DNA of 64,000 bases, taken from positions 32,001 to 96,000 of IMG/VR virus record IMGVR_UViG_3300005253_000015, one strand, 5' to 3'. This document shows, in pieces, positions 3,523 to 4,962 of this stretch (within the stretch, counting starts at the first letter, position 1; every line of letters begins with the position of its first letter). The stretch comes from a virus. The notes below the pieces were generated by a model. That model was not told where the DNA came from and made no database searches. It saw only the letters and a program-made list of their open reading frames with translations. Made by a program: the position numbers and the translations under genes.

Positions 3523-4164
3523 TTAATTAATCTTAGTATTGGGGTCACCAATAAGTTTTGTATGCTTAATATTCCACTCTGTACTTTTTGCGTACCAGTC
3601 ATAGTTACGATAACCAGACTTAGCTTTATATATATTAAGATATTTGGTAGCACGTTTAACAAATAAATTATATGCTTCCCCAAAGGTTTTACCGTCTAAT
3701 ATAGCTTTATCCTTGACGGTTGTATAATCTATCCACGATGATAAATAATTATACTCTTTTTCTGGAAATGCTGCATAGTATAATTCATCAGTTCCAATAT
3801 AGGCTTTAACACCTTTCTTAATAGCAGCAACACCAAGCTCCTTAAGTGATAGACATGCCATAGTGCTAACACCAGCCCCTTTTAATTTATGTATATTTTT
3901 AATATTAATTATTGACCTAATAGCATTGATACCAATTAATCTATTCTTTTCTCCATGACCATAATATATAATTAAATCATAACCCTTTTTTAGTGCTGTT
4001 TTCCAACTGAAAAAAGCTCGATTTGCTCCTAAACCCCATAGATAATCAATATCGAGGTCATATTTAGTTGCTGCATAGTTCATAAGCTCAGCAATTGCAA
4101 GATTTGATGTTATTGTAGGAATATCTTGAAGAGGACTGATAATAAGAATTTTAGCTTTATTCAT
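3523..4164 (-). CDS. Caspase/gingipain-fold (C25/CHAT-like) cysteine protease
   Basis: LIIYYGHG (catalytic His), STMACLS (catalytic Cys), C-terminal LIGDP. Confidence 0.75.
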   Translation of the reverse strand: MNKAKILIISPLQDIPTITSNLAIAELMNYAATKYDLDIDYLWGLGANRAFFSWKTALKKGYDLIIYYGHGEKNRLIGINAIRSIINIKNIHKLKGAGVSTMACLSLKELGVAAIKKGVKAYIGTDELYYAAFPEKEYNYLSSWIDYTTVKDKAILDGKTFGEAYNLFVKRATKYLNIYKAKSGYRNYDWYAKSTEWNIKHTKLIGDPNTKIN

Positions 4165-4225
4165 TTTATAAAAAACCTTTTTACACTTATAATTCTAATA
4201 TTATCTTTATCATTATTAAATTATT

Positions 4226-4912
4226 ATGGAGTCATTAATCTGTACAGAATGTGATAAAACTTGTGGAAATAAAGGAGCATTATCAACTCATTTTAATTGG
4301 AATCATAATAAAGATTTCCAGAAAGTCACTAAGGAAAAACTTAAGGAAAGATACAAGCCTAAAAAGTATCATGATGAAGCTTGGTTAAAAGGTCAATATA
4401 TTGATAAGGAAAAAAGCTCTAATAAAATAGCTGAAGAATGTGGAGCACAGGCAAGTACAATTAAATATTGGTTAAAAAAATTCAATATTAGAACAAGGGA
4501 TTCAAGTGAAGCACTAAGTAAGTATAGAAAAGAGAATCCAATACCACACAACTATAATGGCGGAGTTCGACATCAAGGTGGTTATATTACACTACTAAGA
4601 CCAAACCACCCTAGAGTTAACAAAACAAAAATGCCTTATGTTCCAGAACATATATTAGTAATGGAGAAAGATTTAGGGCGATATATTAAATATTATGGAA
4701 AATGTCATAAGAATAATGAACAAGTACATCATATAAACGGAATTAAAACTGATAATAGAATAGAGAACCTTTTTCTATGTAAGAATAATAGTGTTCATTC
4801 TAAGATTGAAGGACAAATGAAGGCATTATTAGCTGAGATTTATAATTTAAAAAAACCAGTCATAGTTAATTTTAATAAAGAAAATGGCAAGTATCATTAT
4901 GAGTTATACTAA
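4226..4912 (+). CDS. HNH homing endonuclease with C2H2 finger and HTH
   Basis: CxxC..H..H, HTH, YVPEHILVME..LGR, VHHINGIKTDNRIENL. Confidence 0.85.
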   Translation: MESLICTECDKTCGNKGALSTHFNWNHNKDFQKVTKEKLKERYKPKKYHDEAWLKGQYIDKEKSSNKIAEECGAQASTIKYWLKKFNIRTRDSSEALSKYRKENPIPHNYNGGVRHQGGYITLLRPNHPRVNKTKMPYVPEHILVMEKDLGRYIKYYGKCHKNNEQVHHINGIKTDNRIENLFLCKNNSVHSKIEGQMKALLAEIYNLKKPVIVNFNKENGKYHYELY

Positions 4913-4962
4913 GTCGGGATGTCTTGCAAAGGAGCAATTATTAATATTTTATTCTTTTTCAT
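4909..4962 (-). pseudogene. Stranded duplicate 5' fragment of the protease gene (MKKNKILIIAPLQDIPT*)
   Basis: 14/17 aa identical to the N-terminus of 3523..4164; GGAG SD upstream. Confidence 0.8.

Follow-up and report, generated by a model that had tools for sequence, protein, structure and literature searches.

An HNH homing-endonuclease-type gene between two starts of a predicted cysteine protease gene in a putative archaeal virus or mobile element

How can a homing-endonuclease-type gene enter a conserved gene close to its 5' end and leave it complete, and which of the two gene starts now found at the site is the original one? The question is raised by a locus in a stretch of DNA of 64,000 nucleotides (the window), which is part of a genome record of 111,456 bp with direct terminal repeats. 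Here, two copies of the start of a protease gene flank an HNH open reading frame (ORF), one in frame with the gene and the other dead. The gene order on the minus strand is ORF82, ORF164 and ORF218, ORF114, a stub of 17 codons, the HNH gene in antisense orientation, a spacer of 61 nt, and the protease gene encoding 213 amino acids. The features around the insertion are given below in window coordinates; related loci carry L numbers and related proteins P numbers.

3523..4164, minus strand: live protease gene, 213 amino acids, with a predicted clan CD (caspase/gingipain/CHAT-like) fold, assigned from the ORF, Pfam, AlphaFold, and Foldseek
4114..4164, minus strand: replacement 5' end of the protease gene (codons 1-17), imported; nucleotides 1-39 (4126-4164) are L001-like
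4165..4225, no strand assigned: AT-rich spacer of 61 nt between the divergent starts of the HNH and protease genes, with putative promoters for both
4226..4912, plus strand: intact HNH gene of the homing-endonuclease type, 228 amino acids, identified by Pfam HNH_3 and phrog_7545
4909..4962, minus strand: stub of 17 codons plus TAG, read as the original protease 5' end from its native junction and its allele match
4949..5293, minus strand: ORF114, the upstream neighbour, of no known family, whose stop (..NEKE, stop) overlaps the start of the stub

The product of the target gene is predicted to be a clan CD cysteine protease with a caspase-like fold and a His-Cys dyad. The ORF is of full length, has its own ATG, and starts with the N-terminus MNKAKILIISPLQDIPT. 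Its match to the Pfam family Peptidase_C25 is weak (3.3e-5). The AlphaFold model, built with 34 homologues, has a pLDDT of 94.7 and was matched by Foldseek to SAVED-CHAT, gingipain R, legumain, and caspases, with a probability of 1.00 to 8tl0, 1cvr, and 4n6o. His70 and Cys104 are invariant across 35 protease sequences (the 34 homologues and the window protein). In the model, residues 4-10 form strand beta-1 and helix 1 begins at residue 15. Since residues 1-17 form this strand and the start of helix 1, codons 1-17 should be structurally needed, so that a replacement start would keep the protease whole. The insertion site (PL.D.PT / ITSN) is the most conserved N-terminal motif of the protease, with D14, T17, and S20 invariant.

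The inserted gene can be assigned by its intact motif to the HNH_3 homing-endonuclease type; it matches Pfam HNH_3 (1.2e-9, above the cut-off) and phrog_7545 (2.7e-26). The protein is composed of an N-terminal zinc-finger-like extension (CxxC...HxxxxH), a helix-turn-helix (HTH), and the HNH_3 domain. Neither the paralogues nor the relatives from outside the genome show a change at H168, H169, N177, or N181, and the beta-beta-alpha-metal catalytic motif is intact. The HNH gene at 4226..4912 is the only plus-strand gene within a block of minus-strand genes, and the strand skews invert across it. Its C-terminus aligns to the natural C-termini of the paralogues; the left junction of the insert is therefore flush with the end of the ORF. 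Five more HNH_3 paralogues are scattered over the genome, all of them co-directional with their neighbours and devoid of the zinc-finger-like extension, which occurs only in the HNH at 4226-4912.

9626-10159, 13958-14479, 39878-40381, and 43002-43484 in the window, and 101583-102056 in G000: the five HNH_3 paralogues (about 40% identity)

A search around these five genes for flanking duplicates (at least 10/14 within 700 nt) gave none. A second copy of the window HNH was not detected among 5.8 billion proteins, the nearest HNH outside the genome being 42-44% identical. The viral_contigs collection contained no relatives of it, so that a spread across several backbones was not seen, and the HNH-protease junction did not occur a second time in viral, metagenome, or protein collections. 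The spacer, which shows no similarity to the upstream regions of relatives, contains a TTATAA at -28..-23 relative to the protease ATG and is likely to hold the promoters of both the HNH and the protease gene.

On the far side of the HNH gene lies the stub, whose minus-strand sequence from 4962 to 4909 is ATG AAA AAG AAT AAA ATA TTA ATA ATT GCT CCT TTG CAA GAC ATC CCG ACT TAG and translates into MKKNKILIIAPLQDIPT followed by the stop. A GGAG is located 10-15 nt 5' of its ATG, and its TAG (4911-4909) is overlapped by the TAA of the HNH gene (4910-4912). The likeness to the live N-terminus had been reported as 14 of 17 residues, with another codon used for 10 of these 14; a recount gave the same values, with 34/51 identical nucleotides. 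When all six frames of the 111,456-bp genome were translated, every other run of 17 residues stayed below 9/17 identity to the live N-terminus, and the likeness is thus not due to chance. Past codon 17 of the stub, into the 3' region of the HNH gene, no homology to the protease gene exceeds that of shuffled controls, for which reason a TATAAC microhomology at the junction was dropped as a candidate.

Searches of viral and metagenome contigs yielded 17 usable related loci. All of them contain one uninterrupted copy of the protease gene in which PT|ITSN is read straight through, whereas an HNH gene at the insertion site was found in 0/17. The locus thus displays a presence/absence polymorphism at a fixed site, with the HNH gene present in the window and absent from 17 relatives, and one occupied site is known. 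The original prediction that the HNH gene was inserted into the protease gene is borne out by these contiguous loci; the objection that relatives with an empty site might already carry both copies was checked in the same 17 and applies to none of them (0/17). In L026, an HNH-family gene is located divergently, 39 nt upstream of a protease gene whose product is 38% identical to the window protease. This divergent HNH-protease layout implies that a donor-type arrangement exists.

The HNH gene of L026 (1-338, minus strand), which lies at the end of the contig Ga0114923_10000127, has an in-frame stop before the catalytic domain (..NISI, stop, NPTHHRADKNGYVLE) and runs off the contig end. It may represent a decaying homing gene in the same neighbourhood of a distant lineage.

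The parentage of the two starts was derived from comparison with the HNH-free relatives. There is an overlap of 14 nt between the start of the stub, at its ATG, and the end of the upstream gene, at its stop, and the offset is identical in the HNH-free locus L020 (..NGKE, stop, in place of ..NEKE, stop). Residues 3-17 of the stub are identical (15/15) to the N-termini of P0002 and P0004. At the nucleotide level, 38/45 positions are shared with L020, and because all seven differences are synonymous, the stub has experienced no decay since its displacement. The body of the live gene, too, is closest to P0002 (84% over amino acids 59-213, compared to 75% for P0003). In nucleotide sequence, the body is at much the same distance from L001 as from the P0004 type (72-76%), so it is the protein comparison with P0002, and not the nucleotide distances, that ties stub and body to a common lineage. 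The live start has other affinities. Its nucleotides 1-39 agree with L001 (P0003 type) at 37/39 positions, while the remainder of the gene does so at 436/600 (72.7%; Fisher p = 6e-4); with L020 they agree at 24/39 positions, compared to 76% in the remainder. In a max-chi2 analysis, the break was located after nucleotides 33-41 (permutation p = 0.009), and the first 13 informative sites are all L001-like. Nucleotides 40-51 match neither L001 nor the stub, so that the point of the switch from donor to resident sequence cannot be placed.

Taken together, the native junction, the match with P0002 and P0004, and the L001-like patch indicate that the stub is the old start of the resident gene and that the live start is a foreign patch which arrived together with the HNH gene. 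A foreign live end beside a resident dead end is the pattern of an endonuclease cassette with a duplicated gene terminus, as in fungal mitochondria. L001, L015, and L030 have LAZR01 record names, and protein records for the window genome point to the same series. Judged from these record labels, donor-like alleles probably co-occur in one sediment metagenome.

The different spelling of the two starts had been taken as synonymous recoding, designed to make the new copy resistant to cleavage. For codons 3-17, counting only residues in common, live gene and stub share 13 residues, of which 10 are spelled differently (10/13). Among HNH-free alleles the same comparison yields 9/12 for L001 versus L020 and 9/10 for L001 versus L019, and L001 has the live spelling of nucleotides 1-39 without any HNH gene. 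As the live-stub difference equals that between L001 and L020, there is no designed or specially selected recoding; the differing codons are best described, from these alignments, as ordinary synonymous divergence between lineages under purifying selection. In addition, changes at third codon positions often make no difference to homing enzymes, and this speaks against an immunity that depends on synonymous codons. The original prediction therefore holds for the insertion, for the stub as the original 5' end (L020-type junction), and for the live 5' end as a companion of the insert (L001-like nucleotides 1-39), as well as for the fungal analogue it named; the cleavage-resistant design is not supported, as both spellings are natural alleles of HNH-free relatives.

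The reading that we favour, with a probability of roughly 60%, is that the HNH gene, the 61-nt spacer, and the donor's first 13-17 protease codons were copied into the resident gene at codon 17/18 by break repair. The event would have started with a double-strand break in the conserved coding motif PL.D.PT|ITSN, at about codon 17/18, with the nuclease presumed to be its maker. The long side of the break, which carries the protease body, would then have invaded a co-infecting donor with an HNH gene divergently upstream of its protease gene, and synthesis on this template would have added the gene start of the donor, followed by the spacer and the HNH gene. For the short side, only 51 nt and an unrelated neighbour gene would have been available for homology, and the new DNA would have been joined without homology to this other end, which still held resident codons 1-17. 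We infer this order of the repair steps from the resulting layout, in which the upstream gene is followed by the dead resident start, the antisense HNH gene, the spacer, and the donor start, which continues in frame into the resident body. The protease is thereby kept whole. It would have lost its connection with the operon upstream and would depend on a promoter within the spacer. Several observations count against break repair: the five paralogues have no flanking duplicates, a second occupied site was not found, the nearest HNH is 42-44% identical, the body is about as far from L001 as from the P0004 type, and nucleotides 40-51 are unmatched.

A further point bears on the part played by the nuclease. 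A genome-wide scan for short duplicated peptides revealed a second stub, upstream of the first one and derived from another gene.

5286..5330, minus strand: second stub, a copy of the 3' end of ORF82 (..IIKNIKLHKAYD, stop), whose stop overlaps the ATG of ORF114
6516..6764, minus strand: live ORF82, Ig/CarboxypepD_reg-like, a gene that abuts the protease gene in L015 and L019

The ORF82 stub of the window corresponds to the last 10-14 codons or so of ORF82, with a core of 30 nt that is identical to the live end at 26/30 positions, and ORF164 and ORF218 are located between the stub and live ORF82. In L001 (2743-3471), the ORF82 end (RNSIINIKLHKAFD, stop) is present twice, with four synonymous differences, around ORF91 and ORF75. 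In L014 (2155-3465), it is present three times, again with synonymous differences, and the only thing that L014 has beyond L001 is a cassette of one gene, ORF167 (2922..3425), which separates copy 2 from copy 3. The difference between the two loci is accordingly described as a cassette gain or loss through the repeated ORF82 junction. None of the stub-bounded cargo genes (ORF164, ORF218, ORF91, ORF75, and ORF167) matched a nuclease family. The interval from ORF82 to the protease gene is hypervariable, and in L015 and L019 it is reduced to a direct adjacency of the two genes.

Copy 2 of L001 resembles the left half of copy 2 of L014 joined to the right half of copy 3. In addition, a short motif, (T/C)CGATAAA(A/T)AT, recurs just 3' of the ORF82 stop or just 5' of start codons. 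It was observed in L015 (1867-1885), L001 (3471-3492), and L014 (2883-2905), and upstream of the protease gene in L027, L028, and L030-L033 as well as in the 7H_42-like loci discussed below. It may be a common context of starts or promoters that also serves as a linker in recombination.

Because nuclease-free cassettes bounded by stubs occur in the same interval, a nuclease is not needed for such scars, which weakens the case for the HNH gene as the cause, and the recurrence of these cassettes makes an origin independent of the nuclease a serious rival. On this account, two diverged viruses recombined by an ordinary off-register illegitimate event or by a homology-facilitated illegitimate one, so that a module with protease codons 1-17 at its end was linked to one that started with a resident HNH gene and the protease gene; the HNH gene would have been carried along passively, and the stub would be a by-product that persists since it does no harm. 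The duplicated gene ends around cargo without a recognisable nuclease (window, L001, and L014) speak for such a mosaic scar, as do the hypervariable interval, which is closed up where ORF82 abuts the protease gene in L015 and L019, and the fact that no spread of the window HNH was seen. However, the junction is situated inside a highly conserved coding motif instead of between genes, the cargo belongs to precisely that class of genes which is known for provoking events of this kind, the insert ends flush with the stop of the HNH gene, and a simple module join does not predict the foreign patch of 39 nt at the junction side of the live gene. We regard this explanation as unlikely, although it has to be taken seriously.

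Both kinds of stub could also be brought under one heading, albeit speculatively. In this putative Asgard-archaeal virus group, one-side-homology repair of breaks near conserved gene ends might be a general route of cassette gain that imports a donor end and leaves a resident stub. The ORF82 3'-end junction would then be a portable recombination site, and the HNH locus the sole case in which the break-maker is still in place and active, with its imported start immune. We consider this generalisation improbable in its full form.

A different proposal takes stub, HNH gene, spacer, and new start as one stable mobile element that homes repeatedly, with the stub as its left homology arm and the start selected as cleavage-resistant, comparable to a natural recoded gene drive. 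The layout and the undecayed state of the stub fit this idea, and four codons beside the junction differ between stub and live gene at third positions. It is nevertheless quite doubtful, since both spellings are natural in HNH-free relatives and differ no more than L001 does from L020, the supposedly resistant spelling of nucleotides 1-39 is carried by L001 without an HNH gene, searches of viral, metagenome, and protein collections gave no further copy of the element, and an arm of 51 nt beside a non-homologous neighbour gene is a poor homology arm. An assembly chimera of two co-occurring strains, for which several related strains in what is probably one metagenome would provide the material, or a spliced group I or bulge-helix-bulge intron with the stub as real first exon is hardly credible, given that the two copies are only 67% identical in nucleotides, so that no repeat-driven misjoin is possible, that the protease and HNH proteins occur as adjacent genes (_46/_47) on 3-4 contigs of several origins, among them an independent Logan assembly, and that the region has no Rfam match at E <= 1 on either strand, with an antisense HNH gene and a live copy whose own ATG and complete ORF make splicing unnecessary.

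Break repair from a donor, the reading preferred here, places the locus next to several known systems. A free-standing homing-endonuclease ORF in the mitochondria of the fungus Allomyces macrogynus has reportedly duplicated a gene terminus, that of atp6, in work attributed to Paquin et al. [quoted passage not shown] As in these organelles, an endonuclease ORF is located in a conserved gene near one end, a diverged second end keeps the gene whole, and the displaced end is a pseudogene fragment. In contrast to the fungal cases, the window contains an HNH_3 and not a GIY-YIG or LAGLIDADG gene, which is antisense to its target; the 5' end is replaced, so that a new promoter is needed; and the setting is a putative archaeal virus or mobile element instead of an organelle.

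Intron-less homing by free-standing endonucleases is known from T-even phages (SegF, SegG, MobE, and SegB; PMC2790892, PMC2330249, PMC2988022), and phage nuclease genes are found at boundaries of genetic exchange (PMC10448857). The window resembles these phages in that a free-standing endonuclease gene adjoins a conserved gene, flanking donor sequence appears to be co-converted, and the gene sits at a recombination boundary between lineages. In T-even phage homing, however, the endonuclease gene lies between genes, both junctions are homologous, and there is no stub, whereas one junction of the window is non-homologous and inside coding sequence, and cleavage at the window site is presumed. 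In a case cited in PMC10448857 (its reference 8), nrdA of Aeromonas phage Aeh1 is divided by an insertion of mobE into two genes, both of them functional. The Aeh1 locus shares with the window an HNH-type free-standing endonuclease gene inside a conserved gene whose function is retained; unlike its two functional pieces, the gene of the window is rebuilt complete and the piece of 17 codons is dead.

The locus can be regarded as a clean, datable fossil of a selfish nuclease gene entering a conserved gene without killing it, since each of the two parental spellings of the gene start can be traced to relatives that lack the nuclease and probably stem from the same sediment. The layout of fungal mitochondria is thereby extended to a probable virus or mobile element of Asgard archaea, a setting in which there has been hardly any work on homing. 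What it adds to the known cases are the two identified parental alleles and the setting in a cassette hot spot bounded by gene-end stubs. It also corrects an over-reading, as the 'recoding' is plain divergence between lineages. The hot-spot picture helps in annotating these poorly understood elements and in choosing a target on which the HNH enzyme can be tested.

The genome has no match in a named phage collection, by protein or by DNA, and an alignment of the protease against 185,579 species genomes gave no homologue. The relatives of the protease originate from marine sediments, and one homologue is labelled 'archaeon'. The locus L026 is the circular contig Ga0114923_10000127, which belongs to the 7H_42-like 'enigmatic MGEs' of Asgard archaea, elements targeted by CRISPR (Medvedeva et al., bioRxiv 10.1101/2021.07.29.453957). 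Homology to this published CRISPR-targeted element makes an Asgard-archaeal host plausible for the virus or mobile element of the window. The legend of Figure S1 of that preprint lists a C25 protease, HNH nucleases, HMG-domain proteins, and thioredoxin, and its text (10.1101/2021.07.29.453957) contains no description of the insertion or of a stub. The window and the 7H_42-like elements have the C25-type protease family in common, and in L026 an HNH gene is likewise placed divergently upstream of the protease gene; the two are distantly related, and the window genome is about twice as large (111 kb, with direct terminal repeats).

Some minor observations concern the surroundings of the locus. 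ORF114 has no homologue in the fetched loci or in viral_contigs. Small tandem ORFs occupy the window at 23-940 and 6003-6497 (minus strand), several of which end in a common ..TMGEW(L/F).. or ..TMREWLK motif. ORF164 (6003-6497) has a homologue in L017, where it is located far from the protease gene. A conserved protein of 433-442 amino acids, which has no Pfam match, is encoded beside the variable interval in both the window (7342-8643, plus strand) and L001 (815-2143, minus strand) and is characterized by long Asn/Gln-rich low-complexity tracts (runs of N).
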